Origin: Kordia sp. SMS9
GTDB taxonomy: Bacteria; Bacteroidota; Bacteroidia; Flavobacteriales; Flavobacteriaceae
Assembly: GCF_003352465.1 (NCBI RefSeq)
Contig: NZ_CP031153.1
Span: forward strand, 546,465 to 610,464
Length of the DNA stretch: 64,000 nt
Direction: 5' to 3'
Each line of letters begins with the position of its first letter. Position 1 is the stretch's first letter. Below the pieces are notes generated by a model. That model was given only the letters and a program-made list of their open reading frames with translations. It was not told the origin of the DNA and did no database searches. Positions 23,020 to 42,183 of this stretch are shown here, in pieces. Position numbers and translations under genes: made by a program.

Positions 23020-23034
23020 AAGCTAAAAGATACA

Positions 23035-23109
23035 GCAGTAGTTCAAAAGAGTTGGAAGAACACTACCTTGCAAAGGTAGAGGATGCGGGTTCGAGTCCCA
23101 TTTACTGCT
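23035..23109 (+). tRNA. tRNA-Cys(GCA)-like
   Basis: Acceptor GCAGTAG/TTACTGC, anticodon arm CTACC-TTGCAAA-GGTAG (anticodon GCA), T-loop GGGTTCGAGTCCC. The T-stem has one mismatch and the D-arm is atypical. Confidence 0.45.
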
Positions 23110-23149
23110 CTTTAAAAACAATAATAAGAAATTTTGATACGCAAAGATT

Positions 23150-23410
23150 GATGGTTTAATTGGAAGAACACCTAGCTCATCACTGGAAGTGCGAGTTCAA
23201 ACCTCGCTCAATCTTTGCTCAAAAAACGGCAGTGATAGTAGCTCAATTGGAAGAGCATCTGCTCAACCAGCAGAGGGTTTTGAGTTCAAATATCAAGTAT
23301 TGCTGCCTATTAAAAATCATTACGAGAGTTGGTAGTTTAACTGGAAGAACACCTGGCAACCACTCAGGAAGTGCGAGTTCAAACCTTGCGCAACGCTCGT
23401 ATCACAATGG
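23150..23410 (+). pseudogene. Three degenerate tRNA-like repeats (paralogous to flanking tRNAs)
   Basis: Units share D-arm-like GGTTTAAYTGGAAGAACA and a perfect T-arm GCGAGTTCAAACCTCGC. Anticodon arms and acceptor stems pair poorly and carry 4-nt extras between the T-stem and the acceptor strand. Confidence 0.4.
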
Positions 23411-23412
23411 CA

Positions 23413-23485
23413 ACGGTAGTAGCTCAGTTGGAAGAGCGCATGCCTGTCACGCATGAGGTCGCGGGTTCGAATCTCGTTTACTGTT
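23413..23485 (+). tRNA. tRNA-Asp(GUC)
   Basis: D-arm GCTCAGTTGGAAGAGC, anticodon arm CATGC-CTGTCAC-GCATG (GTC), T-loop GGGTTCGAATCTC. The acceptor pairs with two G-U wobbles. Confidence 0.6.
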
Positions 23486-23507
23486 GCCTATTTAAAAAAA
23501 GAAACAC

Positions 23508-26513: not shown

Positions 26514-26588
26514 TGATGCATAGCTTAGTTGGTTAGCCCAGAGGCGCTTTTAACGTCAAGGTCGTGAGTTCGAACCTCACTGCGTCAA
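26514..26588 (+). tRNA. tRNA-Lys(UUU)-like
   Basis: Acceptor TGATGCA/TGCGTCA, anticodon loop CTTTTAA, T-arm GTGAG-TTCGAAC-CTCAC. The anticodon stem has a mismatch. Confidence 0.5.
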
Positions 26589-26594
26589 CAAAAA

Positions 26595-26681
26595 GGAAGA
26601 GCAAGCCAATTGGCGGTGGCCACGGTCTTGAAAACCGTTCGGAGTTAATGACTCGTGTGGGTTCGACTCCCACTTCTTCCG
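26595..26681 (+). tRNA. tRNA-Ser(UGA), type II
   Basis: Acceptor GGAAGAG/TTCTTCC, anticodon arm ACGGT-CTTGAAA-ACCGT, long variable arm, T-arm GTGGG-TTCGACT-CCCAC. Confidence 0.6.
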
Positions 26682-26691
26682 CAACTAATTT

Positions 26692-26778
26692 GGAGTGTAG
26701 GTAAATATTGGTTCGTTACGCTTGACTGCTAATCAAGTCCGTTTAACCGCGGTGAAGGTTCAATTCCTTTGCGCTCCG
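26692..26778 (+). tRNA. tRNA-Ser(GCU), type II
   Basis: Acceptor GGAGTGT/GCGCTCC (G-U wobbles), anticodon arm CTTGA-CTGCTAA-TCAAG, long variable arm, T-loop GGTTCAATTCC. Confidence 0.55.
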
Positions 26779-26787
26779 CAACATATT

Positions 26788-26914
26788 GGGGATATAGTTT
26801 ACCAAGCTAAAACAGTGGGTTTAACTCGATGATACCTATTTGATATTATGGTCTCATTGAATTCGCAAGCTTATTTGCTTCTCGCAGCACGGAGTGCAAG
26901 TCTCCGTATCTCCA
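26788..26914 (+). other. Oversized (127-nt) tRNA-like element
   Basis: Good acceptor GGGGATA/TATCTCC, D-arm GTTT-ACCAAGCTA-AAAC and T-like arm CGGAG-TGCAAGT-CTCCG, but ~50 extra nt in between with no clean anticodon arm. The T-loop has G at position 55. Confidence 0.35.
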
Positions 26915-26920
26915 CAACAT

Positions 26921-26992
26921 GATATTATAGCTCAATGGCAGAGCAAAGACCTGTTAAGTCTGAGGTTGAAGGTTCGAATCCTTCCGATATCG
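26921..26992 (+). tRNA. tRNA-Asn(GUU)
   Basis: D-arm GCTCAATGGCAGAGC, anticodon loop CTGTTAA, T-arm GAAGG-TTCGAAT-CCTTC. 3' end ...CGATATC-G-CA. Confidence 0.6.
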
Positions 26993-26996
26993 CAAC

Positions 26997-27069
26997 GACA
27001 AGGTGGCTGAATGGCAAAGGCAGCAGTCTGCAAAACTGTTTTGTATGAGTTCGAATCTCATCCTTGTCT
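26997..27069 (+). tRNA. tRNA-Cys(GCA)
   Basis: Acceptor GACAAGG/CCTTGTC perfect, anticodon arm GCAGT-CTGCAAA-ACTGT, T-arm ATGAG-TTCGAAT-CTCAT. Confidence 0.65.
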
Positions 27070-27117
27070 CAATGATTATGTAGTATCAAACTTGTTTGAA
27101 TAGTATATAATTTACTT

Positions 27118-27200
27118 GGAAGTGTTGAGAAATTGGTTGGCTTGCCAGACTGTAAATCTGGTCTCTTCGGAGCGTGTAGGTTCGAGTCCTACTACTTCCA
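27118..27200 (+). tRNA. tRNA-Tyr(GUA), type II
   Basis: Acceptor GGAAGTG/TACTTCC, anticodon arm CCAGA-CTGTAAA-TCTGG, long variable arm, T-arm GTAGG-TTCGAGT-CCTAC. Confidence 0.65.
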
Positions 27201-27206
27201 CAACAC

Positions 27207-27278
27207 ACGCTTGTGGTGTAACTGGTAGCATGTACGTCTCCAAAACGTACGGTTGAGGTTCAAATCCTTGCGGGCGTG
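27207..27278 (+). tRNA. tRNA-Trp(CCA)
   Basis: Anticodon arm TACGT-CTCCAAA-ACGTA, T-loop GGTTCAAATCC. The acceptor pairs with two G-U wobbles. Confidence 0.55.
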
Positions 27279-27282
27279 CAAA

Positions 27283-27440
27283 ATATAGCTATGGTGTAAT
27301 GGATAGCACATGAGATTTAGCTCACATGTTATTCATTATAGATTAAGCAGTTCGTGAATGTGAAAACATTTCTAACCTCATAGTCTAAGTTCGAAATGCT
27401 TTGCATTCATGAGTTCCTATTTATTAAGATAAGAACAAAA
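27283..27440 (+). pseudogene. Degenerate tRNA-Arg-like 5' half followed by ~100 nt of unassigned structured sequence
   Basis: Starts ATAGCTATGGTGTAATGGATAGCACA (same acceptor/D-arm as the tRNA-Arg at 27888), but the anticodon arm is broken and no intact T-arm/acceptor follows. Only an AAGTTCGAAATGC T-loop-like fragment is present. Confidence 0.35.
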
Positions 27441-27467
27441 CGAACTAATCTTAGTAGCTATACAAAT

Positions 27468-27539
27468 AGTATCGTGACTCAACGGTAGAGTGCTCGACTG
27501 TCTCTCGAGAAGTTGCGGGTTCGAATCCCGTCGGTACTG
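27468..27539 (+). tRNA. tRNA-Asp(GUC)-like (pyrimidine at position 37)
   Basis: D-arm ACTCAACGGTAGAGT, anticodon arm CTCGA-CTGTCTC-TCGAG, T-arm GCGGG-TTCGAAT-CCCGT, acceptor AGTATCG/CGGTACT. Confidence 0.5.
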
Positions 27540-27545
27540 CAAAAT

Positions 27546-27618
27546 CTGGGAATAGAACAATTGGCTGTTTACTCGCCTTGGACGCGAGAGGATGTAGGTT
27601 CGAATCCTGCTTCCCAGA
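27546..27618 (+). tRNA. tRNA-Pro(UGG)
   Basis: Acceptor CTGGGAA/TTCCCAG perfect, anticodon arm CTCGC-CTTGGAC-GCGAG, T-arm GTAGG-TTCGAAT-CCTGC. Confidence 0.6.
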
Positions 27619-27709
27619 CGACTAAATCAAAGCAAGCTTGCTTGAATTTGATTTGCAGTGAGGCATAGCAGGAACACTTTGCAAATCCTGCTTCTGAAAC
27701 AAATAAAAT

Positions 27710-27781
27710 GCTCCGTTCGTCTAATGGCTAGGACACCTGCCTTTCGAGCAGATAATAAGAGTTCGATTCTCTTACGGAGTA
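27710..27781 (+). tRNA. tRNA-Glu(UUC)
   Basis: Acceptor GCTCCGT/ACGGAGT, D-arm GTCTAATGGCTAGGAC, anticodon loop CTTTCGA, T-arm AAGAG-TTCGATT-CTCTT. Confidence 0.55.
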
Positions 27782-27787
27782 CAAAAT

Positions 27788-27860
27788 GCAGAGGTGGCGG
27801 AATGGCATACGCAGCTGTCTTAGAAGCAGTTTTTTGAGAGTTCGAATCTCTCTCTCTGTA
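27788..27860 (+). tRNA. Atypical tRNA: anticodon UAG (Leu) on a 73-nt type-I body
   Basis: Acceptor GCAGAGG/TCTCTGT (G-U wobbles), anticodon arm GCTGT-CTTAGAA-GCAGT, 5-nt variable loop, T-arm GAGAG-TTCGAAT-CTCTC. Bacterial tRNA-Leu normally has a long variable arm. Confidence 0.4.
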
Positions 27861-27887
27861 CAAACGCAATCTTGAAAGGAGTGCAAC

Positions 27888-27959
27888 AAGTTTATGGTGT
27901 AATGGATAGCACATTGGCCTACGAAGCCAAGAGTATAGGTTCGAATCCTATTAGACTTA
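27888..27959 (+). tRNA. tRNA-Arg(ACG)
   Basis: D-arm GTGTAATGGATAGCAC, anticodon arm TTGGC-CTACGAA-GCCAA, T-arm ATAGG-TTCGAAT-CCTAT. Confidence 0.6.
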
Positions 27960-27965
27960 CAATAT

Positions 27966-28037
27966 TGATCTGTGGTGTAACGGTTAGCACACGAGACTTT
28001 GACTCTCGGGGAAGAGGTTCGGTTCCTCTCAGATCTA
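27966..28037 (+). tRNA. tRNA-Gln(UUG)
   Basis: Anticodon arm CGAGA-CTTTGAC-TCTCG perfect, T-arm AGAGG-TTCGGTT-CCTCT, acceptor ...GATCTG/CAGATCT. Confidence 0.6.
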
Positions 28038-28041
28038 CTAT

Positions 28042-28137
28042 AGCGATATAGCTTAATTGGTAAAGCACTGGTCTCATAAGCCAGAAGTTGAAATGCCTGT
28101 ACTGAACTTGATTCAGTATCTAAGATTTCTATCGCCA
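28042..28137 (+). pseudogene. tRNA-Met/Ile2(CAU)-like gene whose T-loop is replaced by a ~29-nt palindromic (REP-like) insertion
   Basis: Acceptor AGCGATA, D-arm GCTTAATTGGTAAAGC, anticodon arm CTGGT-CTCATAA-GCCAG, then T-stem GAAAT/ATTTC enclosing GCCTGTACTGAACTTGATTCAGTATCTAAG in place of the 7-nt T-loop. It is a paralog of the intact tRNA-Ile that follows. Confidence 0.5.
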
Positions 28138-28145
28138 CTAAAAAT

Positions 28146-28218
28146 AGTGATATAGCTTAACTGGTAAAGCGTCAATCTGATAAGTTGGCAGATGAAAGTT
28201 CAAATCTTTCTATCACTA
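28146..28218 (+). tRNA. tRNA-Ile(GAU)
   Basis: Acceptor AGTGATA/TATCACT perfect, D-arm GCTTAACTGGTAAAGC, anticodon loop CTGATAA, T-arm GAAAG-TTCAAAT-CTTTC. Confidence 0.65.
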
Positions 28219-28225
28219 CAAAAAT

Positions 28226-28298
28226 GGTGACTTTAGTTTATTTGGTAAAACGCCTCACTGTGAATGAGAGGAACAGGGTTCGATCCCCGAAGTCACCC
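28226..28298 (+). tRNA. tRNA-His(GUG) with encoded G-1
   Basis: 5' GGTGACTT..., anticodon loop CTGTGAA, 3' ...AAGTCACC-C (G-1:C73 pair typical of bacterial tRNA-His). The T-stem is imperfect. Confidence 0.55.
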
Positions 28299-28303
28299 AA
28301 CCA

Positions 28304-28427
28304 GGAATAATGACAGAGTTGGTCAATGCGATGGATTGAAATGAGTTTACGAATTCATCGAAACCTATTTAATAAAATAGAATTCTATGAGATAAACCCA
28401 GAGATATAGGTTCGAATCCTATTTATT
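28304..28427 (+). other. Oversized (124-nt) tRNA-like element
   Basis: Acceptor GGAATAA/TTATTCC perfect and T-arm ATAGG-TTCGAAT-CCTAT, but ~50 extra nt internally, including a GAATTC-centred palindrome; no clean anticodon arm. Confidence 0.35.
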
Positions 28428-28533
28428 CCACAAAAGAAATGTAGTTTAAAATTAAAATAGCGAGCTAGTATCTCGAAGATGCAAGTAAAGTCTTGCCATT
28501 TCTCAAATTAAAAATTAATAAAAACAAACAGTC

Positions 28534-29006: not shown

Positions 29007-30014
29007 ATGTTTAAAAAATATAATAGTATCGAAAATACCTACCGTGAAAAGGCAACCGAACAAGTATATCTTCACGGGTATGGAAACGATGTATTTGTGG
29101 TACAAGAAAAAGTACATGGCGCTAATTTTTCTTTCATTACGGATGGAGATACAATTAGAGTTGCCAAACGTACATGTCTAATTGCAGAAGATGAAAACTT
29201 CAACAATCACAGATATGTTTTACACAAATATGAAAAAGCAATTACAGGGCTTTTCAAACGTGTAAAGAACGATTTTCCAGAAACAGAAATGATCACTGTT
29301 TTTGGTGAAATTTTCGGAGGAAGCTATCCGCATGCGGAGGTAGAAAAGATCGATGGAATGGTTCGCATTCAAAAAGGTGTTTTTTACAGTCCAGAAAATG
29401 ACTTTTACGCGTTTGATATTTGTATCAATCACACGCAATATCTTGATGTTACCATCGCGAACACATACTTTGAAGCAACAGGAATGTTGTATGCAAAAAC
29501 ACTTTTTGCAGGAACCTTTAGCGAATGTATGGCATATCCAAATGCATTTGAATCAAAAGTTCATGAATGGCTACATCTTCCAAAGATTGAAGACAATGTT
29601 TGTGAAGGAACCATCATCAAACCATTAACTAGCAAGCGTTTTGGAAATGGACAACGTGTTATTTTCAAAAACAAAAACGAAAAATGGTCTGAAAAGTCAC
29701 ATGAAAAACGATCAAGAGTTTCAAAGCCAAGTGCAATAGGAATGCTTTCACATACTGAAAAAGAATTGATGCACACGCTTTTGGGCTACGTGAACGAAAA
29801 TCGTTTGATGAATGTACAAAGTAAGCTTGGAGAGTTTTCACCAAAACAAACGGGAAAAACGATCGGATTGCTTGCCAAAGATGCACTAGAAGATTTTGTA
29901 AAAGATCATGAAAATGATTGGAATAACGTACAAAAAGAGCATCAAAAAGTATTAACAAAAATACTGAACAAAGAAGCAGTTACTGTCGTAAAAAAAGTAC
30001 TTCTTTTTAGGTAA
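29007..30014 (+). CDS. ATP-dependent RNA ligase, T4 Rnl2-like
   Basis: Nucleotidyltransferase motif I EKVHGANF (compare T4 Rnl2 EKIHGTN), motif IV VCEGTIIKP, motif V VIFKNKNEKW; 335 aa. Confidence 0.7.
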   Translation: MFKKYNSIENTYREKATEQVYLHGYGNDVFVVQEKVHGANFSFITDGDTIRVAKRTCLIAEDENFNNHRYVLHKYEKAITGLFKRVKNDFPETEMITVFGEIFGGSYPHAEVEKIDGMVRIQKGVFYSPENDFYAFDICINHTQYLDVTIANTYFEATGMLYAKTLFAGTFSECMAYPNAFESKVHEWLHLPKIEDNVCEGTIIKPLTSKRFGNGQRVIFKNKNEKWSEKSHEKRSRVSKPSAIGMLSHTEKELMHTLLGYVNENRLMNVQSKLGEFSPKQTGKTIGLLAKDALEDFVKDHENDWNNVQKEHQKVLTKILNKEAVTVVKKVLLFR

Positions 30015-30023
30015 TGTAGAAAT

Positions 30024-30060
30024 GACTGTCCAAGCTTCTATTCTTGGACAGTCTTTATAA
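30024..30060 (+). terminator. Rho-independent terminator after RNA ligase
   Basis: GACTGTCCAAG...CTTGGACAGTC hairpin followed by TTTAT. Confidence 0.55.
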
Positions 30061-30142
30061 AAGATACAAACAATGTGTTCAAGTAAAAACAGCCGCAAAC
30101 CAAAACTGTTGGCTGTAGTTAACTTGATATAAAATTAAACAG

Positions 30143-30628
30143 ATGAAAATAACAATGAACAAGTGGCGAAACTTTTCAGGCAAAGTGTTCAATGAACCCA
30201 TAACTACACTTGTTGAGAATGCCATTGTAAAAGAACAAAAAGCTGGTCACAGATTGAAAATCTATGTGGGTTCGGATTCACAAGCCTATAAAACACATGT
30301 AAACTATGGTACTGTCATAGTGATTCTTAGAAAAGGAAAAGGTGGTTTTATGTTTATCAAAAACGAAAAAGGAACCACTAAAATAGGACTAAAAGAGCGT
30401 ATGCTAAGAGAGGTAGCACTATCCGTAGAAACAGCCTACCGCATTTGTGACCTATTGGAAAAATACAATATTGAATTGGAAGTTCATGCAGATATCAATA
30501 CAGACTCAAAATTTGAATCAAATGTGGCACTTAAAGAAGCGATGGGATATATCATAGGAATGGGCTTTGCATTCAAGGCAAAACCGTATGCTTTCGCAAG
30601 TTCTTCTTGTGCAGATAGTATTGTCTAA
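30143..30628 (+). CDS. Hypothetical protein (possibly RNase H-like YkuK/DUF458 fold)
   Basis: ORF track; YVGSDSQ motif is reminiscent of YkuK-family proteins; the assignment is uncertain. Confidence 0.4.
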   Translation: MKITMNKWRNFSGKVFNEPITTLVENAIVKEQKAGHRLKIYVGSDSQAYKTHVNYGTVIVILRKGKGGFMFIKNEKGTTKIGLKERMLREVALSVETAYRICDLLEKYNIELEVHADINTDSKFESNVALKEAMGYIIGMGFAFKAKPYAFASSSCADSIV

Positions 30629-30934: not shown

Positions 30935-31140
30935 CAAATATAATCCTCCATAGAGAAACATGGGTCATGGGTTCGAATCCCATTCTCGCAAGAGATAGTT
31001 CAGCGGTTAGAACAATGTTTTTGGATGTTGCCGGTTCGAGTCCGGTCAGTAGTTCCGAAAGGGCGGCTATTGTAACTCAATTGGTAGAGTACTACACTTT
31101 TAATGTAGATTGAAGTTCGATTTCTTCTAAAAAAATCACC
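30935..31140 (+). pseudogene. Three tRNA-like fragments (minihelix-like T-arm+acceptor; D-arm+T-arm without acceptor pairing; Lys(UUU)-like D/anticodon arms without acceptor)
   Basis: ATGGGTTCGAATCCCAT flanked by GAGAA/TTCTC; GTTCAGCGGTTAGAAC ... GCCGGTTCGAGTCCGGT; ACTCAATTGGTAGAGT + CTACA-CTTTTAA-TGTAG + AAGTTCGATTTCTTC. None folds into a complete cloverleaf. Confidence 0.4.
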
Positions 31141-32585: not shown

Positions 32586-32633
32586 GGTCTCACGACTGCG
32601 CTACCAACGTAGTTGTGAGACTACTTTTATTTA
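32586..32633 (+). terminator. Rho-independent terminator
   Basis: GTCTCAC...GTGAGAC hairpin followed by TACTTTTATTT. Confidence 0.55.
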
Positions 32634-32661: not shown

Positions 32662-33102
32662 ATGTCACGCCTATTACAAAAAATTACATACTTTTTTTCT
32701 TCTTTTTTTTCGGAAAAAGAGAATGAAAAACCCAAAGCAAATACACTAAAAATAAGTGATGAAATTGTGTTAAATGTTATGGAGCGATTGTCTCATTTTG
32801 AGCAAACAAAAGGGTTTTTAAAACCAATGACGTTACATAAATTGGCAAAAAAACTAAAAACAAATCCTAAATATTTATCAAGAATCATCAATGATCAATA
32901 TCAGAAGAACTATAGTTCCTACATCAACGATTTGCGTATTTCCTACTTACTAAAAGCATTGGAAAACGATGATTCGTTAAAAAAAGTAACCGTAAAATCA
33001 CTAGCAAAAAAGTTAGGATTTGGCAATACAGAATCCTTCGCAAAAGCATTTAAAAAGTATACAGGAGTCAATCCTTCTGTCTATTTAAATAGCTTGCCAT
33101 AA
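32662..33102 (+). CDS. AraC-family transcriptional regulator (short, HTH domain)
   Basis: C-terminal KSLAKKLGFGNTESFAKAFKKYTGVNPSVY is the AraC-type HTH signature. Confidence 0.75.
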   Translation: MSRLLQKITYFFSSFFSEKENEKPKANTLKISDEIVLNVMERLSHFEQTKGFLKPMTLHKLAKKLKTNPKYLSRIINDQYQKNYSSYINDLRISYLLKALENDDSLKKVTVKSLAKKLGFGNTESFAKAFKKYTGVNPSVYLNSLP

Positions 33103-33405: not shown

Positions 33406-34977
33406 GTGTATTGTAGAACTTTGATACACTCTAATCAACCTCAACACTGTATGGAATCTAGCCAAGAAAACACACCGCAAACTGATACAATCGAAATCAA
33501 AGTCTATGTCCCAATCAACGAAGTGACAGAGCGACAAAAGGGAATGATTGACAATGCTATTGCCAAACACCCTAGAGATCGAAAATACCTCTCAAACTCA
33601 GCGCATTCAGAAATTTTTGCTCCTAGTAAAAATGATGCCAACGACATTATTGAACATGCACAAGCTCAGAACTGGGAAGTAGATTTCAATGAAAAAGCTC
33701 GTAAAATTACGATCAAAATAAACTCAGAAGATATTGCTGACCAAAATAATCCTGTTACCCTTGATACGCTTCAATTTCTAAGTTCACAAGGAGATATTCA
33801 CATGGAAGTACTTGGTGAAGATCAACATGCAAAAGCCGAAGACATTACAGATCCTACACAAAAAACAGGCTTTGTAAAAAGTAATCAAGAACAACGCGTA
33901 GGTCGTGGACGCCAAATTCCAATTCAAGAACCTGCACACGGATACAGCGTCTTAGAAATTGCAGAAAGCTACAACTTCCCTGATGGTGATGGCGAAGGAC
34001 AAACCATAGGAATTATAGAATTAGGTGGAGAAGTACAGCAAAGCGACTTGGAAAAATTCTTTGCAGAATACAACACGCCAATTCCAGAAATTCAAATTGT
34101 GGGCAAACCAACTACAACTCCCGTAAATGATAACGTAGAAGTAACTGCAGACATTCAAGTAGCTGGAATCTTAGCGCCAAAAGCAAAGTTTGTCATCTAT
34201 TACGGAACTACCATCTTAGAAGCAATGAAAGCAGCATTGGCAGATACTGAAAACAAACTAACCGTCATTTCCATCAGTTGGGCAGGATCTGAATTGGGAT
34301 ATGCGCAACAAGAAATTATAGAACTCAACAATGTTTTTCATGAAGCTTCCTTAAAAGGAATTACTGTAGTGGGCGCTTCGGGCGATAATGGTGCTTTAAA
34401 CAACAAAGCATATGCAAATGTAAATGTGCCTGTAAACTCTCCGTATGTACTCGCTTGTGGCGGAACACAAACCTATATTACAGATGATAAAATTGCAGCA
34501 GAAGTTGTATGGAACGAATCTACGCAACAATCGCAAATAGGATCTGGTGGCGGATTCAGTCAGCGTATTTCCCAACAACAATATCAAATAAAATCTTCAC
34601 AAGAATACATTCAAAAATTTCCAAAATTTGCATCTTACCATCAAGCTGGCGGAAGAGGAATTCCAGACATTGCTGCAAATGCGGCAGATGCTTCGGGCTA
34701 TAGTATTGTTTTTCAAGGTCAATGGGTTAAAGTTGGCGGAACCAGTTTAGCAACACCACTTTGGGCTGCTCTAATCGGGCGTATGAATCAAAACTTAGGA
34801 TACCGATTAGGATTTATAAATCCATACTTATATGAGTTAATGGGTTCTTCGTCATTTCATCAAATTTTAGAAGGAAACAACAACCTCTATGTTGCCTCGG
34901 AAGGATGGAATCCATGTACAGGATTAGGCACGCCTGATGGAAAAGAACTAATGCATTCCATTGATAGTTTAGAATAA
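33406..34977 (+). CDS. S53 (sedolisin/kumamolisin-like) serine-carboxyl peptidase with pro-domain, no signal peptide
   Basis: YSVLEIAESYNFPDGDGEGQTIGIIELGG (start of the mature S53 domain), GASGDNGA (oxyanion Asp box), GGTSLATPLWAALIGRMNQ (catalytic Ser). The N-terminal ~180 aa form a pro-segment, and no secretion signal is present. Confidence 0.8.
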   Translation: MYCRTLIHSNQPQHCMESSQENTPQTDTIEIKVYVPINEVTERQKGMIDNAIAKHPRDRKYLSNSAHSEIFAPSKNDANDIIEHAQAQNWEVDFNEKARKITIKINSEDIADQNNPVTLDTLQFLSSQGDIHMEVLGEDQHAKAEDITDPTQKTGFVKSNQEQRVGRGRQIPIQEPAHGYSVLEIAESYNFPDGDGEGQTIGIIELGGEVQQSDLEKFFAEYNTPIPEIQIVGKPTTTPVNDNVEVTADIQVAGILAPKAKFVIYYGTTILEAMKAALADTENKLTVISISWAGSELGYAQQEIIELNNVFHEASLKGITVVGASGDNGALNNKAYANVNVPVNSPYVLACGGTQTYITDDKIAAEVVWNESTQQSQIGSGGGFSQRISQQQYQIKSSQEYIQKFPKFASYHQAGGRGIPDIAANAADASGYSIVFQGQWVKVGGTSLATPLWAALIGRMNQNLGYRLGFINPYLYELMGSSSFHQILEGNNNLYVASEGWNPCTGLGTPDGKELMHSIDSLE

Positions 34978-35015
34978 GATTTAGCAAAATCATTACTCAC
35001 CTAAAACTCAAAATT

Positions 35016-35450
35016 ATGACTAAAAAATTGGCATTAGATGAACTTCCTAAACGTCTCACTATAGATGGTAAAAAAATAGACGATATGCTAATGATCTATG
35101 GTTTTGTGGCTCCAGGAACAGCAGAAAACAACATCAAATTCTACCTAGATCCTTCTTTGAAAACATCAGTAGTTATTAACGATGAAGATATCATTCACCA
35201 TGCAAAAGTGAACAAGTCGCACAATCCTATTGGTGGAACAGTCATTTGGGTTAAAAATGCAGCTAAGTACATACAAGGAAACGCAACACCAGCACAGGCA
35301 GTAGCAAACATACAAGCACAACAACATGCTGAACAATTTTTCCAAGGAGACATTTATCAACAATATGCAAACACTGTTCAAGGAAATACCCAACCAAAAC
35401 CACAAAACCCTTATGCACCAGTTTGTGGATGCGGAAAATGCGAACAGTAA
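35016..35450 (+). CDS. Hypothetical 144-aa protein with Ala/Gln-rich segment and C-terminal CGCGKC
   Basis: ORF track. TPAQAVANIQAQQHAEQ resembles the AQAQ punctuation of the downstream precursor. The C-terminus reads PVCGCGKCEQ. Confidence 0.5.
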   Translation: MTKKLALDELPKRLTIDGKKIDDMLMIYGFVAPGTAENNIKFYLDPSLKTSVVINDEDIIHHAKVNKSHNPIGGTVIWVKNAAKYIQGNATPAQAVANIQAQQHAEQFFQGDIYQQYANTVQGNTQPKPQNPYAPVCGCGKCEQ

Positions 35451-35542
35451 AAGAGATCATACCCAAAATTGATAAGCAACTATCAATTTCCAAAATCGTA
35501 AGATTTTAAAAATCATATTATTAACCTTTAACTTAAATTATT

Positions 35543-36850
35543 ATGTTTACATTTTTTCACGGATGTGGAATTCCGCCTATCACAGTAACATGTGGTCAAG
35601 GTGGTGCACATGCACAGAATGTTGGACCTACGGGGACATTCGGTTGTACACAACCAGGTCATTGTTTAGGCCCAACAGGAACGCAAGGTTGTACAGTAGC
35701 TACTGCGCCACCACATTGCTTAATTGGACCTACGGGAACGCAAGGTTGTACGCAACCAGGTCATTGTGTTGGACCTACTGGAACGTATGGATGTACAGTA
35801 GTTGGACCAACAGGAACACAAGGCTGTACACAACCACAAACTATTTTACCTCCAACTATTGGATGTATTACAGTTACAACAACAGTAGTAACACATGCGC
35901 AAGCACAAGCTAATGTACCTAACACTATTGGATGTACAGCTATTACACCTTGTCCTACTTTACCTTGTCCACAAGGTGGAAATGCACAAGCGCAAACTAT
36001 TTTACCGCCAACATTACCTCCAGCATGCGTACCTCATACAGTAGGATGTACGGCTATTACGCCATGTGTAACAATTGGTGGTCATGCACAAGCACAAACT
36101 GTTCCACGTCCATCTGCCATTTGTGCAACAGCTATTGCATGCACAATTACGACAGCTCCACAGGCTGCACAAGCACAAACTATTGGTATTACTGGATGGC
36201 ATGGATGCACTGTGGTTGGACCAACAGGAACACAAGGATGTACAGTTGTAGGACCGACAGGTTACCAAGGTTGTCTAACACCAACAGGAACACCTCCAGC
36301 TACAGTTTGCCCAGGTGGTAATGCACAAGCACAAACAATCGGTGTTACGGGATGGCATGGTTGCACAGTTGTAGGACCAACTGGTTATCTAGGATGTTTA
36401 ACTCCAACAGGAACGCCTCCAGCTACAGTTTGCCCAGGTGGTAATGCACAAGCACAAAACGTAGGACCAACAGGATGGGAAGGTTGTCACCAACAAAACA
36501 CGCTTGCTACTGTTTGCACACAAATTGATTGTGGCGGACCAACACACCTTTTAGGTTGTACAGGTTACGAAGGTTGCCTAACTCCAACAGGAACGCCTCC
36601 AGCTACAGTTTGCCCAGGCGGCGATGCACAGGCACAGACTCTTGGTCATACAGCGTATGAAGGTTGTGGACAGCATGGAACAGAAGCTACGGTATGTACA
36701 CAAATTGGATGCGGACCAACACATCTTTTAGGATGTACTGGATATGAAGGATGTCATAATGGAGGAAATGCTCAGGCACAAATTCATAGTATTCCTGTAG
36801 CAGACTGTATTCCTACACGTAGTTGTACAGGAGCTTGGCCAGTATGTTAA
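35543..36850 (+). CDS. 435-aa Cys/Thr/Gly/Pro-rich multi-cassette polypeptide (candidate multi-core RiPP/lanthipeptide precursor)
   Basis: No signal peptide (MFTFFHGCGIPP...). About nine segments are separated by the conserved punctuation (P)GG[NHD]AQAQ[TN][IVL]. The segments are dominated by Cys, Thr, Gly, Pro (for example TIGVTGWHGCTVVGPTGYLGCLTPTGTPPATVCP). Two cassettes are nearly identical. The other-frame ORFs 35563-36321 are artefacts of this repetitive DNA. Confidence 0.55.
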   Translation: MFTFFHGCGIPPITVTCGQGGAHAQNVGPTGTFGCTQPGHCLGPTGTQGCTVATAPPHCLIGPTGTQGCTQPGHCVGPTGTYGCTVVGPTGTQGCTQPQTILPPTIGCITVTTTVVTHAQAQANVPNTIGCTAITPCPTLPCPQGGNAQAQTILPPTLPPACVPHTVGCTAITPCVTIGGHAQAQTVPRPSAICATAIACTITTAPQAAQAQTIGITGWHGCTVVGPTGTQGCTVVGPTGYQGCLTPTGTPPATVCPGGNAQAQTIGVTGWHGCTVVGPTGYLGCLTPTGTPPATVCPGGNAQAQNVGPTGWEGCHQQNTLATVCTQIDCGGPTHLLGCTGYEGCLTPTGTPPATVCPGGDAQAQTLGHTAYEGCGQHGTEATVCTQIGCGPTHLLGCTGYEGCHNGGNAQAQIHSIPVADCIPTRSCTGAWPVC

Positions 36851-36908
36851 TGATAGCTTATCTACAATAGATACAGCTATTTTTTAGTAGTATAAAGCTG
36901 CCTGTACA

Positions 36909-38027
36909 TTGCAGGCAGCTTTCAAAACTCAAAAAACTATTTTTATGCGCTTAACGAAAAAAAACATCACTCATTACCTACTAGACAAAGGATTTTTAGA
37001 ACCTACATCCTTTATGTCAGGAGAGTATATGCTTACGCAAACTCAAAGTAGAAACTCCATCTTTAAAATTCAACAACAACAAGACAAAGGATTATTTGTT
37101 AAGCAACTCATCGCGCAAGATGCTACAAATAGCTACTTGATGCAGAAAGATGCCACAAGTCACTATTTAATTCATCAATCAGATTTATATAAAGAAACCG
37201 CAACACATATTCCTGAATATTACGGGTACGATCCGTATCATAACATTTTAGTCACGGAATATTTTGCAAACACCAAAAACATACACGAAGTTGTTTATCG
37301 TGATAAAAAATTATCAGAATCACACGCAGTAAAAATGGCGCATATATTAGCTTCGTTTCATTTTGATATTACAAAAGAGATTAAAAATAATAGTTCGCTT
37401 CAATTCTTCAGTAAACAAATTCCGTGGATTTTAAACACAAATCAACTACTAAACAACAACTCCCAAAGTATTAATAATGCTGTCATTGCAGAAATTCACA
37501 AACATCAAGATTTGGTGAAACGCATGGACAAAGTGGCTTCGCAGTGGGAAACTTCAAGCTTGATTCATGGAGATATTAAGTGGATGAATTTCATCGTAAT
37601 GCCAAATAATGAAGAGGTAAAACTCATTGATTGGGAAATTGCCGATTTAGGCGATCCACTATGGGATGTAGCCGGAGTTTTTCAATCGTATTTCTGTGCT
37701 TGGGTTTTAAGTTTTAACAATCAAAACATACAGGATCATCAACAAATGCCTGGTACGGAGTTTTTATCGGTAGAAACCATCACACCAGTTGTAAAATTGC
37801 TTTGGGAAACCTATGCATCTGCTCAAAAATTTACAGCTACCGAAGCTAGAGAAAAGTTACTCAAAACACTTTCCTACATGGCAGCTCGCATGATACAAAC
37901 TGCTTTTGAAAACAATATGGCGCAACAACAACAAATGTATCCGAATTCGGCACGTATCCTACAATTCTGCAATCATATTTTAGCAGATGTTGAAGGAATT
38001 GCAAAACAATGGAATTTAATAGACTAA
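36909..38027 (+). CDS. Aminoglycoside-phosphotransferase-fold (APH/CotS-like) kinase
   Basis: Catalytic loop HGDIKWMNF and IDWEIADLGDPLWDVAG (D-[FW]-E ... GDP..D of the APH fold); N-lobe Lys in GLFVKQL. 4-nt gap to the next ORF. Confidence 0.65.
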   Translation: MQAAFKTQKTIFMRLTKKNITHYLLDKGFLEPTSFMSGEYMLTQTQSRNSIFKIQQQQDKGLFVKQLIAQDATNSYLMQKDATSHYLIHQSDLYKETATHIPEYYGYDPYHNILVTEYFANTKNIHEVVYRDKKLSESHAVKMAHILASFHFDITKEIKNNSSLQFFSKQIPWILNTNQLLNNNSQSINNAVIAEIHKHQDLVKRMDKVASQWETSSLIHGDIKWMNFIVMPNNEEVKLIDWEIADLGDPLWDVAGVFQSYFCAWVLSFNNQNIQDHQQMPGTEFLSVETITPVVKLLWETYASAQKFTATEAREKLLKTLSYMAARMIQTAFENNMAQQQQMYPNSARILQFCNHILADVEGIAKQWNLID

Positions 38028-38031
38028 AACC

Positions 38032-39087
38032 ATGAAAAACAACACACATACAAAACAAGTACGTCAAATTATAGATGCTATTGAAATTACTTCGTTAACC
38101 ACGTATAAAGTACATGGTGAAGAAGAATATGTGCAAAATCAAATGCCGTATCAAACCTTTGCAGAAGATTTTAAATCGTTTGGAAGCAATGCCACTGTAG
38201 ATTCACAGCAACAGCGCACCAACTTAACCAACGCACTTACCAATACGATTTACGCTAAATTCTATTGTGGAATTCAAAATGGCAATCATACGTCAAAAAT
38301 TCCACCAAAAGTGGAACGAGATGAATTTATGAATCAACTTTCGCAGGCAAATACTTCCGTTAATGGACTCGACTATCATTGGAATATTTACAATATTGAC
38401 GCCAAAACAGGAAGCGCATACGTTCAAAAAAACGGCGAATTGCGTTGGTTACAACCGAACGGATTTCAATTTGTAAATCCGCAGCAAAAACAAGCAATCG
38501 TGAATACGAAAGTAAATCTAACACGTCAAAAAGAAAACAGAAACCTTCAACCTGTATTTTATCATGTGTTTAGCAATGAAATGTTTCCGCAGGAAGTCGA
38601 AATTGGAAGATTCTACTGGAACGTTTCGCCAGAAGGCGCTGCCAAACTCGTCAACTTGCTCACAACAACGTTGAATGATTATAAAATTCCATTTCAATTC
38701 AAATGCTTAAATCACCCTGAGTTGTATGTCCGATCCGACTCCGCCGTTTTATATGTAAGTAAAAAACACGTGCAATTAGTTTCCATCATTTTACAAAGTG
38801 TCATTCCGAATTTAGAACCGTATCTTGTAGACGAAATTCCGATGTTTACCAAACAGCTTCACAAAGGTGTTGGGTACGCAGAAGATCCTGGGAAAGGGCA
38901 AAGTTTTGGAATGAGTCGCTCATCTACCATTGCAGAAGCGTTGGTAGAAGCATTCTTGCAAGAACAAAATGCCACACAAAGGTTCAACACAGTGGTCAAT
39001 TCTTTATCGCGAAAAGGAATGTCACTCGATCGTTTGCACCTAAACAAACACACCGCATTAACGCCAACATTCCCAACATATGAATAG
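38032..39087 (+). CDS. Hypothetical 351-aa protein between kinase and LanC-like genes (candidate phospho-Ser/Thr lyase partner)
   Basis: ORF track; translationally coupled on both sides; no motif I can assign from memory. Confidence 0.5.
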   Translation: MKNNTHTKQVRQIIDAIEITSLTTYKVHGEEEYVQNQMPYQTFAEDFKSFGSNATVDSQQQRTNLTNALTNTIYAKFYCGIQNGNHTSKIPPKVERDEFMNQLSQANTSVNGLDYHWNIYNIDAKTGSAYVQKNGELRWLQPNGFQFVNPQQKQAIVNTKVNLTRQKENRNLQPVFYHVFSNEMFPQEVEIGRFYWNVSPEGAAKLVNLLTTTLNDYKIPFQFKCLNHPELYVRSDSAVLYVSKKHVQLVSIILQSVIPNLEPYLVDEIPMFTKQLHKGVGYAEDPGKGQSFGMSRSSTIAEALVEAFLQEQNATQRFNTVVNSLSRKGMSLDRLHLNKHTALTPTFPTYE

Positions 39088-40342
39088 TATAGAAACCACC
39101 CAAAAAACAGACGTACAAATGTATGTAAAAACGGCACACAATATTGGCAAGTACTTAGCCAAAGAAGCATTATGGTATAAAGATATGTGCAACTGGACTG
39201 GGCATGAAGTGGCGCCCGTTGGCGATACATTCCAAACGGTTGTCAAAGCGTGTAGCATTGATTTGTACAGCGGACTCACAGGAATTGCTTTATTTTTAGC
39301 AGAATTATATGATAAAACGCAAGATACAATCATTTTGCACACCTTAAATGGTGCCTTAAAAACCATCTATTCAAATTTAGAAGGTGACAAAGTAAACAAC
39401 TTCGGATACTACTCTGGAAAAATTGGATTGGGATATACGCTGTGGCGCATTGGGAAAAAATCAGCAAATGCGGAATTGGTAGACAAAGCACTTTCCATAG
39501 TAAAATCTGTCAAAGACAAAGACATTGCCGATTATGAAGTAGATATCATTTCTGGCGCTGCGGGATCCATCTCAGTGTTATTAAAACTATACTATGCCGA
39601 ACAAGACAATGACTTTTTGGAAATTGCTGAAAAATGTGGTCAATTTCTATTGAAAAAAGCGATCCGACAAGGTGAAATCTGTTCATGGATGACGGTTGAC
39701 AAATCCAATGCACTTACAGGCTATTCGCATGGCGCTTCGGGTATTGCTTCCGCATTGATGGAACTCTATGCAACCACAAAGAAAGAGGAATACTGGCATA
39801 CCGCTATGGGCGGATACAACTATGAGAAACAATGGTTCAATCAGCAAACTCAAAACTGGCCCGATTTACGTGAATATGATGGTTCCAAACCGTTAAACTA
39901 CGGCGTTATGTGGTGTCACGGCGCACCCGGAATTGCCATTGCGCAACTAAAAGCCTACGAAATGACGAAGCATGAATACTTTTTACAGGAAGCGAAAGTT
40001 GCTTTGGAAACTACCAAAAGAACAGTCATTCAAGAAATCAATATAAACTCGAAAGCAAACTTTTCACTATGTCACGGATTGGCTGGAAATGCTGATATAT
40101 TACTCTACGGAAGTCAAATACTAAATCATCCAGAATATGCGCAAATTGCCAAAAATGCAGGCGATTTCGGAATTGCACACTACGATGCAACAGGTGTGAT
40201 ATTTCCAAGTGGCGTGAACGATCCTAGCGGACTCACCATCGGACAAGAAGAAAATCCTGGACTCATGTTAGGACTTTCAGGAACAGGCATGTTTTACTTG
40301 CGTTTGGCAGATATCATGGTTCCTTCGGCGTTGGTGCCTTGA
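39080..40342 (+). CDS. Stand-alone LanC-like lanthionine cyclase domain protein
   Basis: All three LanC zinc-ligand motifs are present: GYSHGASGIASAL, VMWCHGAPGIAIAQL, SLCHGLAGNADILLYG. 420 aa; it overlaps the upstream stop by 8 nt. Confidence 0.8.
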   Translation: MNSIETTQKTDVQMYVKTAHNIGKYLAKEALWYKDMCNWTGHEVAPVGDTFQTVVKACSIDLYSGLTGIALFLAELYDKTQDTIILHTLNGALKTIYSNLEGDKVNNFGYYSGKIGLGYTLWRIGKKSANAELVDKALSIVKSVKDKDIADYEVDIISGAAGSISVLLKLYYAEQDNDFLEIAEKCGQFLLKKAIRQGEICSWMTVDKSNALTGYSHGASGIASALMELYATTKKEEYWHTAMGGYNYEKQWFNQQTQNWPDLREYDGSKPLNYGVMWCHGAPGIAIAQLKAYEMTKHEYFLQEAKVALETTKRTVIQEININSKANFSLCHGLAGNADILLYGSQILNHPEYAQIAKNAGDFGIAHYDATGVIFPSGVNDPSGLTIGQEENPGLMLGLSGTGMFYLRLADIMVPSALVP

Positions 40343-40378
40343 CATAAAAAATAATTCCTACAACCAAAACTTCATAAC

Positions 40379-40406
40379 AAGGGTTTTTTTCCCTTTTATT
40401 TTTAAG
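40379..40406 (+). terminator. Rho-independent terminator closing the putative RiPP operon
   Basis: AAGGG-TTTTTTT-CCCTT hairpin followed by TTATTTTT. Confidence 0.6.
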
Positions 40407-40678: not shown

Positions 40679-41014
40679 ATGGACAAATCATACTACAACC
40701 CAAGAGACTTAAAAAAATTCGGATCCATTACTGAATGGAGTGAAGAATTGGGAAACAAATTCTTTGAATACTACGGAAAAGTGTTTGAAGAAGGCGCGCT
40801 CACACCTCGCGAAAAATCACTCATCGCTTTAGCAGTAGCACATACCGAGCAATGTCCGTATTGCATTGATGCCTATTCACAAGACGGTTTGCAACGCGGA
40901 ATCACAAAAGAAGAAATGATGGAAGCCATTCACGTTGGTGCCGCCATCAAAAGTGGTGCAACATTAGTGCATGGTGTGCAAATGATGAACAAAGTAAATA
41001 AATTGGAAATGTGA
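40679..41014 (+). CDS. AhpD/carboxymuconolactone-decarboxylase-fold protein (arsenosugar-biosynthesis-associated peroxidase-like)
   Basis: 111 aa; CPYC within the helix-rich AhpD core (LIALAVAHTEQCPYCIDAY); immediately upstream of ArsS. Confidence 0.7.
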   Translation: MDKSYYNPRDLKKFGSITEWSEELGNKFFEYYGKVFEEGALTPREKSLIALAVAHTEQCPYCIDAYSQDGLQRGITKEEMMEAIHVGAAIKSGATLVHGVQMMNKVNKLEM

Positions 41015-41127
41015 TTTTTATAATTTCAAAAATTATAAAAATCATCCTGAGCACCGTCGAAGGATCTTTGAAACTCAAATACTCTGAATTACGTATATAA
41101 TTTAGAAACGAAACACAAAACATATAC

Positions 41128-42183
41128 ATGGCGACAAAGTCCCTACAAAAAAGAGAAAGTGAACTTGCAAGTACAAAACGACAACTGGAAATTCTGTCTA
41201 ACGGAATCTTTCAAAGTGGCGAATTGCCAACGTTTGCCAACAAAATAAAAGAAACAAATCAATTTCCCCTAAAGCCCAAAAAAATTGAAATCTTACAAAT
41301 CAATGTTGGGTATATGTGCAATCAAGTCTGTTCGCATTGTCATGTAGATGCAGGTCCCGACCGAAAGGAAATCATGACGCGTGAAACCATGCAACAATGT
41401 TTGGATGTCATTGAAAAAACGGGCGCACATACGCTCGATTTAACAGGTGGCGCACCCGAAATGAATCCACACTTTCGTTGGTTTGTAGAAGAAGCGTCTA
41501 AAATTGGTGTGAAAGATTTTATTGTACGATCAAATCTTACGATCATTCGTGCGAACAAAAAATACTACGATTTGCCAGAATTCTTCAAAAAACACAATGT
41601 ACATGTCGTTTCTTCCATGCCGCACTGGACACGTGGAAAAACGGACAAACAACGTGGCGACGGTGTTTTTGACAAATCTATCAAAGCCTTACAAGAACTC
41701 AACGCAGTTGGCTACGGAATGCCCGATAGCGATTTGCGATTAGACTTGGTATACAATCCGTCAGGAGCGTTTTTACCGGGAGATCAAACAGCGATGGAAA
41801 AAGATTTCAAAAAAGCCTTATTCGACGATTTCGGCATTCAATTTCACAACCTATTTGCCATTACTAACTTGCCGATCAGTCGTTTTTTGGATTACCTTAT
41901 TGCTTCTGAAAACTATGAAGATTATATGTACTCTTTGGTGGAAGCGTTCAATCCGGGCGCGGTGACAAATGTCATGTGCACCAATACCATTTCCGTAAGT
42001 TGGGACGGTTGGTTGTACGATTGCGATTTCAACCAAATGCTCGATTTAAAAGTAGCAAGCAAGGTAAAACACATTTCAGAATACAACGAAGAACTATTAC
42101 AAAACAGAAACATCATCATCTCTCAACACTGTTATGGTTGCACCGCTGGCGCAGGAAGCAGTTGTCAAGGAAGTGTTGCTTAA
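41128..42183 (+). CDS. arsS: Radical SAM protein ArsS (rSAM/Cys-rich-domain, arsenosugar biosynthesis)
   Basis: CNQVCSHC (CxxxCxxC) radical-SAM cluster motif and a C-terminal Cys-rich tail CYGCTAGAGSSCQGSVA. There is no in-frame TGA, so it is the Cys form, not the Sec form. Confidence 0.75.
   Translation: MATKSLQKRESELASTKRQLEILSNGIFQSGELPTFANKIKETNQFPLKPKKIEILQINVGYMCNQVCSHCHVDAGPDRKEIMTRETMQQCLDVIEKTGAHTLDLTGGAPEMNPHFRWFVEEASKIGVKDFIVRSNLTIIRANKKYYDLPEFFKKHNVHVVSSMPHWTRGKTDKQRGDGVFDKSIKALQELNAVGYGMPDSDLRLDLVYNPSGAFLPGDQTAMEKDFKKALFDDFGIQFHNLFAITNLPISRFLDYLIASENYEDYMYSLVEAFNPGAVTNVMCTNTISVSWDGWLYDCDFNQMLDLKVASKVKHISEYNEELLQNRNIIISQHCYGCTAGAGSSCQGSVA

Follow-up and report, generated by a model that had tools for sequence, protein, structure and literature searches.

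Lanthionine installation by three separate proteins, namely a kinase (LanK), a lyase (LanY) and a cyclase (LanC), is now named class Vb of the lanthipeptides, and papers citing the original report describe the LanC of the SmoA pathway as directing ring formation (Pei et al., JACS 2022). The SmoK/SmoY/SmoC route was reconstituted in 2022 (Pei, Zhu, Sarksian, van der Donk and Nair, JACS 2022), and in the 2024–2025 literature SmoA still figures as the sole characterised class Vb member. HopA1–LanC families in Proteobacteria, Bacteroidetes and Actinobacteria were reported by Eyles et al. (2021; Chem Sci 12:7138; bioRxiv 2020.12.17.423248), who proposed the same division of labour among kinase, HopA1 and LanC and whose supplementary table lists HopA1 entries for Kordia algicida and K. 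zhangzhouensis. In class Va, spontaneous cyclisation without LanC occurs. Here, we analyse an operon of this kind in the flavobacterium Kordia sp. SMS9, using a 64,000-nucleotide stretch of contig NZ_CP031153.1 (positions 546,465 to 610,464, forward strand; assembly GCF_003352465.1), hereafter the window, in which all positions are counted. An earlier note on this DNA had proposed a lanthipeptide-type operon for a ribosomally made peptide modified after translation (RiPP), an operon that would phosphorylate Ser/Thr, eliminate and add Cys, and the predicted APH kinase, HopA1 lyase and zinc-type LanC described below support that proposal. Its further view that the enzyme combination was undescribed does not stand, as Eyles et al. 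(2021) saw the combination and it has been named class Vb, with SmoA reportedly characterised in 2022; a Bacteroidetes example was likewise already on record, K. algicida and K. zhangzhouensis being part of the Eyles et al. set.

We propose, with a probability of roughly 70%, that the locus is a lanthipeptide operon of class V(b) type that would act on a giant multi-cassette precursor, p435, with product release by a kumamolisin-like S53 peptidase and with a small leader-type protein, p144, acting in trans. In the proposed route, LanK would phosphorylate Thr and a few Ser of p435, LanY would remove the phosphate to leave dehydrobutyrine or dehydroalanine, and LanC would add Cys thiols to form mostly methyllanthionine rings that run from Thr(i) to Cys(i+5). 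The cytoplasmic S53 peptidase would then cut at AQ(AQ) spacers to give about ten different polycyclic peptides of roughly 20–100 residues, while p144, as a detached leader domain, would aid enzyme recognition or activation in trans.

The identity and the active-site integrity of all four operon enzymes can be read from their sequences. The protein of 351 amino acids (aa) that the earlier note had left unassigned matches the HopA1 family (PF17914; Table 1) and is, by homology, LanY, the lyase of class V lanthipeptide pathways; a homology search returned it at 100% identity as KORDIASMS9_00551. R193, K224, R234 and Y241 are invariant across 22 aligned homologues, which go as low as 28% identity, with spacings of 31, 10 and 7 residues versus 32, 10 and 7 for R187, K219, R229 and Y236 of the cacaoidin lyase CaoY. 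The first three of these CaoY residues were tested by mutation, K219A abolishing elimination, R187A nearly abolishing it and R229Q making dehydration inefficient, and Y236 is a conserved residue (PMC9486802). The kinase call of the earlier note was borne out by Pfam (APH, PF01636, 1.2e-8), with the catalytic loop HGDIKWMN and the metal-binding IDWE motif intact and the class V kinase LxmK as the best NCBIfam match (5e-18, below the model's cutoff). LanC matches LANC_like (Table 1) and, in NCBIfam, the C-terminal region of LanM at 285 bits, above NisC; with the LanL and LanKC models of NCBIfam, similarity is confined to the cyclase part and stays under the cutoffs. When LanC is aligned to LicM2 and LanCL2, the SHG, WCHG and CHG motifs (zinc site, active-site His and acid motif) are all kept, which settles in its favour a point on which the earlier note had made its reading depend. 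All motifs quoted there (HGDIKWMNF, IDWE..GDP.WD, SHG, WCHG, CHG) were found in the translations. Neither LanD (HFCD flavoprotein) nor LanX (a second kinase-like protein) was detected in Pfam scans of the operon and its flanking genes. As judged from these comparisons, LanK, LanY and LanC together are a class Vb lanthionine synthetase.

The likely substrate of these enzymes is p435, a polypeptide of unusual composition (18% Thr, 17% Gly, 11% Pro and 9% Cys) that contains 79 Thr, 3 Ser and 40 Cys, no Lys and 10 charged residues. Its cassette architecture is directly legible: eight AQAQ spacers of the form (G)G-x-AQAQ cut the protein into nine segments (1–122, 123–151, 152–185, 186–212, 213–264, 265–305, 306–365, 366–413 and 414–435), and a single-AQ spacer, GGAHAQ at residues 20–25 within the first segment, brings the number of cassettes to about ten. 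The first cassette begins at Met1 and the last has no spacer, and cassettes start alike after Met1 and after AQAQ (MFTYF... versus AQAQ/TYF...). The protein thus opens directly with a cassette, with neither an N-terminal leader nor the single short core of a conventional class Vb precursor. A Thr or Ser lies 2–6 residues upstream of every Cys (40/40), which agrees with the earlier suggestion that this Cys/Thr-rich protein is the substrate, and at position -5 of 25 of the 40 Cys, versus 7.4 ± 2.3 in shuffled sequences (z = 7.5, a value inflated by the repeats). The T-x4-C spacing is common to dissimilar cassettes (TGTQGC, TAITPC, TLATVC, THLLGC, TLPPAC) and recurs among Saprospiraceae, Hymenobacter and Chitinophaga; in the Flavobacterium clade, the positions are -6 and -3. 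More generally, the N-to-C order of Ser/Thr and then Cys recurs in unrelated cassettes of other lineages, where (S+T)/Cys is at least 1.47 everywhere. The register in p435 is the donor-then-acceptor order that would be expected of enzyme-made (methyl)lanthionine rings.

The p435 gene contains tandem DNA repeats with periods of 123 and 180. Compared with the orthologue in the related locus L001, differences at codon positions 1, 2 and 3 number 10, 5 and 61, with 51 synonymous versus 14 non-synonymous codon changes; because third-position and synonymous differences dominate among orthologues, the coding frame is genuine and under purifying selection. Kordia orthologues range from 282 to 585 aa via cassette gain and loss, with the first (MFTFFHGCGIPPVTLTC) and last (IHSIPVADCIPTRSCTGAWPVC) cassettes retained. 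Precursor identity across Kordia loci is 46–80% versus 70–93% for the enzymes, so the precursor has diverged faster than the enzymes encoded beside it. The exact 435-aa sequence was absent from a collection of 15 billion proteins that does contain its four neighbours, with Kordia sp. SMS9 accessions, and the gene may be annotated with a different start or uncalled.

The gene set is conserved well beyond Kordia. With a profile built from HopA1 homologues, 65 species-level loci were recovered; they belong to Kordia, other Flavobacteriaceae, Saprospiraceae, Hymenobacter, Spirosoma, Chitinophaga, Flavobacterium, Pectobacterium, Rahnella, Oceanospirillum, Oleiphilus, Acidobacteriota, Alphaproteobacteria and others. 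The order kinase–HopA1–LanC is found in 65/65 loci, contig-end truncations aside, which answers the earlier note's question about neighbourhood conservation. In about 50 of the 65, the open reading frame (ORF) just before the kinase encodes 200–673 aa with 7–12% Cys in Ser/Thr/Pro-rich repeated cassettes, and the exceptions are mostly loci at contig ends or Spirosoma-type precursors, in which an N-terminal domain dilutes the Cys content.

The S53 peptidase would most likely cut p435 at its AQ(AQ) spacers. Named 'S53 family peptidase' (508 aa) by NCBI, it matches kumamolisin-As in the PDB (8e-74) and Peptidase_S8 in Pfam (5e-8), with some 178 residues N-terminal to the catalytic domain that give a weak Pro-kuma_activ match (3.9e-4; 21.1 bits versus a gathering threshold of 23.5). 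It has no hydrophobic N-terminal segment (maximum Kyte–Doolittle value, KD(12), 0.73), as expected of the cytoplasmic enzyme that the earlier note had predicted. In all 26 cluster-associated S53 proteins compared with kumamolisin-As, the Ser-Glu-Asp triad (E-x3-D and GGTS) and the GD(N)G motif with the oxyanion Asp are kept, and two Asp of the S1 region are replaced by N, S or M. These are also the two positions at which the engineered 4NE7 departs from wild-type kumamolisin-As (1SIO), the substitutions there being reportedly meant to move the P1 preference from Arg towards Gln. Because both S1-region Asp are lost, a neutral S1 pocket can be predicted, and this would suit a cut after the Gln of AQAQ. 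Precursor composition points the same way: among loci with enough flanking DNA (23 with and 23 without S53), AQ frequency per 100 aa of precursor is 1.64–7.32 with the peptidase versus 0–1.18 without it, the ranges being disjoint, and AQAQ occurs in none of the 23 S53-less precursors. The S53 gene shifts in position, lying 5' of the precursor in Kordia and Hymenobacter and 3' of LanC in Gammaproteobacteria, and stays in the cluster. On sequence inspection, two S53-less loci have another peptidase adjoining the precursor, C1/papain-like in L059 and S8/subtilase-like in L065.

The remaining protein, p144, consists of a small beta domain (residues ~20–85) and a Q-rich linker, with a conserved motif, FFQGDIYQQYANT, ahead of the CGCGKCx tail. 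Neither Pfam nor NCBIfam gave a match at E <= 0.01, including the known leader families NHLP and Nif11. An AlphaFold2 model has a predicted local distance difference test score (pLDDT) of 70–85 for residues 20–85 and 59 overall, with the Q-rich region disordered and short helices at the conserved motif; when the PDB was searched with this model in Foldseek, nothing matched below E = 0.3. Among 1.84 billion representatives searched with a profile, 705 clusters were recovered at E <= 1e-3; their proteins measure about 100–916 aa, and almost without exception the domain is N-terminal or nearly so. Of the best 148 matches, 109 are proteins of 170 aa or more, and in 104 of these 109 Cys makes up at least 5% of the tail (median 10.4%). 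Spirosoma- and Saprospiraceae-type loci carry the domain fused to a Cys-rich precursor directly upstream of the kinase, and P0152 has an F-x-G-D-(I/L)-Y motif ahead of each of its three Cys-rich blocks. A link to Kordia is P0211 (916 aa), in which the p144 domain is fused to Kordia-like cassettes (TIGVTGWQGCTVVGPTGTQGC..., ATVCTQIGC...THLLGC and ...CTGIPFIC); its operon (L066) runs precursor–APH–HopA1–LanC, without S53, stand-alone p144 or AQAQ. Stand-alone homologues in Oceanospirillum and Oleiphilus lie directly after the S53 gene and contain zero Cys; because they are Cys-free, they are not core-bearing precursors there, and p144 was rejected as the main precursor on this ground. The simplest reading of these domain arrangements is that p144 is a detached leader or recognition domain, which would probably supply enzyme recognition or activation in trans. 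As a separate observation, the linker and motif part of the p144 profile matched 12 times in tandem in P0139, a metagenomic protein of 1003 aa (…FGYGKIYQSIPSTISSETTPTS…) that is Ser/Thr/Pro-rich and Cys-free in its repeat region, and this may be either a related repeat precursor with other chemistry or a compositional match.

Several observations weigh against parts of the proposed route. The kinase reaches 65.2 bits against a cutoff of 315 for the LxmK model NF038156 and is, on this score, a distant subfamily rather than an LxmK orthologue. Known S53 enzymes are typically secreted and acid-active, and a cytoplasmic role is unusual for them; the argument for Gln at P1 depends, moreover, on the reported aim of the kumamolisin engineering. 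In a neighbour-joining tree of HopA1 and LanC, the S53-containing loci form approximately one clade, with an AQ-poor, S53-less sister group (L027/L029/L031) and one apparent loss inside the clade (L018, S53-less and AQ-free). Because the tree gives essentially one S53-containing clade, we downgraded the association between S53 and AQ from strong statistics: it is phylogenetically confounded and represents one or two events, not 46. Turning to p144, Rahnella, Pectobacterium and Hymenobacter have S53-containing loci with leaderless precursors and undetectable p144, and a trans leader is therefore not generally required. In Gammaproteobacteria p144 travels with S53 and not with the precursor, so its role could be protease-related. 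Neither in Kordia nor in Rahnella does the operon contain or adjoin a transporter or immunity gene, and the rings, the cleavage sites, the trans-leader role of p144 and the fate and export of the products are all elements that we infer.

The main rival to the proposed route keeps the same enzymes and has p435 remain whole as a cross-linked structural, adhesive or metal-binding polymer, with S53 trimming it or serving another role. The lack of a transporter or immunity gene and of a leader on p435 would fit such a polymer, as would the near absence of charged residues, the very large precursors elsewhere (up to 673–916 aa) and the many loci without any protease. Against an uncut polymer stand the conserved spacers that separate dissimilar cassettes and co-occur with S53, the C1-like and S8-like peptidases that by inspection adjoin the L059 and L065 precursors, and a cassette number that varies freely among close species, as it would if each cassette gave a product of its own. 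We consider an uncut p435 unlikely. A further proposal assigns the precursor role, alone or as a second precursor, to p144, as a long leader followed by a short C-terminal core, CGCGKCx, with p435 serving some other purpose. It draws on the use of this domain as the N-terminal leader of Cys-rich precursors elsewhere, and on the three invariant Cys and invariant Thr120 of the Kordia tail. That tail nevertheless departs from the Thr(-5)Cys rule, the stand-alone homologues of Oceanospirillum and Oleiphilus are Cys-free and P0124 and P0130 have no Cys tails; the near-universal partner of the kinase, LanY and LanC is the p435-type ORF, not p144, which is missing in many loci. A precursor role for p144 in Kordia is accordingly quite improbable in our estimation.

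Another possibility accepts the dehydroamino acids and denies the rings: the LanC-like protein would add an external thiol, as the glutathione transferases of the eukaryotic LanCL type do, or the Cys would form disulfides or bind metal. LanC does match the LanCL2 and LanCL1 structures, and the class Va precedent shows that cyclisation can proceed without such an enzyme. Yet every Cys of p435 has an upstream Ser/Thr partner in register, LanC is nearer to the cyclase domains of LanM and LicM2 than to LanCL, and the characterised class Vb LanC is a lanthionine cyclase, all of which makes this outcome very unlikely. We thus retain the route in which LanK, LanY and LanC would modify p435 and S53 would release its cassettes. 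An extended version, in which one leaderless polyprotein would yield a combinatorial library of polycyclic lanthipeptides, with p144 acting in trans, S53 cutting at AQAQ, arrays reshuffled between species and a whole family of hundreds of giant Cys-rich precursors skipped by short-peptide RiPP miners, is offered tentatively, as one that we would sooner doubt than expect in its entirety.

The enzymology of class Vb is established and one product is known, whereas this locus points to a phylogenetically wide group (65 loci and 705 leader-domain clusters) with substrates of hundreds of residues and up to ~60 Cys that short-peptide genome miners overlook. In the extended version, S53 would bring to RiPP maturation a protease of a new type, and interspecies cassette reshuffling would act as a natural diversity generator. 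If the proposed route is true, S53 peptidases would join the RiPP protease repertoire and lanthipeptide sequence space would be enlarged. It would also offer a natural case of multi-core, possibly trans-leader-guided lanthionine installation, useful for engineering, and would raise the question of what purpose non-exported or unconventionally exported polycyclic peptides serve in a marine algicidal genus.

The coordinates of the operon are collected in Table 1. An ORF check of the window confirmed the seven co-directional genes described earlier. The interval then given for them opens at 33406, where the S53 ORF does start; the AraC gene (32662–33102), counted among the seven, falls outside it, upstream. 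Intergenic gaps are 38 nucleotides (nt) between the S53 gene and p144, 92 nt between p144 and p435, 58–94 nt between p435 and lanK and 4 nt between lanK and lanY, and the start of lanC overlaps the end of lanY by 8 nt. A 349-nt AT-rich intergenic region separates the AraC gene from the S53 gene and probably contains the operon promoter; a sigma-70 promoter scan stayed at shuffle level (29 found versus 26 expected), the sigma-70 model being unsuited to Bacteroidota. The AraC gene lies directly 5' of S53 in most Kordia-clade loci with a contig reaching that far. The 'clean terminator' of the earlier note proved to be a weak hairpin after lanC, with a 5-bp stem, -6.8 kcal/mol and z = -0.24 versus shuffles, no better than chance. 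A good terminator-like hairpin was found by pattern scan at 32586–32622, 5' of the AraC gene, and an SPFH-family gene lies upstream of the operon. A hydropathy check revealed no signal-peptide-like or transmembrane hydrophobic stretch in the six operon proteins.

Table 1. Features of the candidate lanthipeptide operon of Kordia sp. SMS9 (positions in the window).
Feature	Position	Strand	Evidence or remark
AraC-family regulator, helix-turn-helix (HTH) only, 146 aa	32662..33102	+	Pfam HTH_18 1.2e-15, HTH_AraC 1e-7
Kumamolisin-like S53 (sedolisin-family) serine-carboxyl peptidase	33451..34977	+	annotated ATG 33451; ORF opens GTG 33406
p144, free-standing leader-type domain protein, 144 aa	35016..35450	+	profile search, AlphaFold2 model
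p435, predicted leaderless multi-cassette precursor protein, 435 aa	35543..36850	+	composition, cassette split, Thr/Cys register
LanK, APH-fold Ser/Thr kinase	36945..38027	+	RefSeq ATG 36945; ORF opens TTG 36909
LanY, HopA1-family phospho-Ser/Thr lyase, 351 aa	38032..39087	+	Pfam HopA1 3.1e-39
LanC, stand-alone zinc-type lanthionine cyclase	39080..40342	+	LANC_like 1e-67
Weak terminator-like hairpin AAGGG-N7-CCCTT, then T-run	40379..40405	+	pattern scan

In Rahnella sp. AA (L025, 5215–7251), sequence inspection places two ORFs 5' of the precursor, an FHA-domain regulator-like protein and a Hanks-type Ser/Thr kinase-like protein, and this pair would be a form of regulation unlike the AraC protein of Kordia. 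Directly 3' of the Kordia operon (40679–42183) lies an arsenosugar gene pair, an AhpD-like peroxidase-related protein (TIGR04169, 3.6e-57) and the radical SAM protein ArsS (TIGR04167, 4e-133), which is syntenic in most Kordia loci and unrelated to the operon. Further upstream, a dense tRNA array occupies the + strand at 23032–23488 and 26514–28504 plus 31066–31135 (21 genes by ARAGORN, 24 Rfam matches, ~18 amino acids), with unusual anticodons (Val-AAC, Gly-ACC) and duplicates of the tRNAs for Cys, Met, Asp and Ser. Directly after the array, at 29007–30628, are genes for a T4 Rnl2-type RNA ligase (PF09414, 4.5e-21; PF18043, 1.6e-21) and an RNaseH-like PF04308 protein, a pair whose synteny extends to at least one further genome of Kordia (L007). 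The array and ligase region looks like a mobile or phage-type module for tRNA supply and RNA repair.

Among the described lanthipeptide systems, class Va (cacaoidin CaoK/CaoY, lexapeptide LxmK/LxmY/LxmX, pristinin and triantimycins) shares with the Kordia operon dehydration by LanK and LanY, including the Arg/Lys/Arg/Tyr set of CaoY; it differs in having LanD, LanX and aminovinyl-methyl-cysteine (AviMeCys) and no LanC, whereas Kordia has LanC and neither LanD nor LanX. Class IV LanL and class III LanKC resemble it in combining lyase and kinase chemistry, with a zinc LanC-type cyclase in LanL, but do so in a single three-domain polypeptide with an OspF-type lyase, compared with three proteins and a HopA1-type lyase in Kordia. 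Multi-core RiPP precursors are familiar from PatE-type cyanobactins, microviridins and fungal Kex2-processed repeats, in which several cores with conserved sites are served by a dedicated protease; unlike p435, these carry an N-terminal leader and involve other chemistries and other proteases.

Full-text literature searches turned up neither a single lanthipeptide precursor bearing tens of rings nor an S53 protease in a RiPP cluster, the latter in line with the earlier note's remark that such a peptidase would be unusual here, and no account of giant leaderless cassette precursors, a detached leader-type domain or an S53 partner. The cross-phyla family of cassette and spacer precursors, the detached leader-type domain and the link between S53 and AQAQ thus seem to be undescribed. 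The families of Eyles et al. (2021) have the same gene association, and that study does not report giant precursors built of cassettes, a leader domain or a link to S53; the RiPPER-type mining of that study assigned as the Kordia 'peptide' the downstream AhpD-like protein and, in Pectobacterium, out-of-frame fragments. The Smo system, as far as the available accounts describe it, is the nearest in enzymes, with a discrete PF01636 kinase, a PF17914 lyase and LanC, without LanD or LanX, and with products that contain (methyl)lanthionine ((Me)Lan) rings only; it is reported to act on a conventional single precursor peptide and has an orthologue, SpcC, from Streptomyces. Set against these accounts, the Kordia operon would direct similar chemistry, in a marine flavobacterium, to a leaderless protein of 435 aa in which about ten cassettes are strung together, accompanied by a separate leader-type protein and an S53 peptidase.

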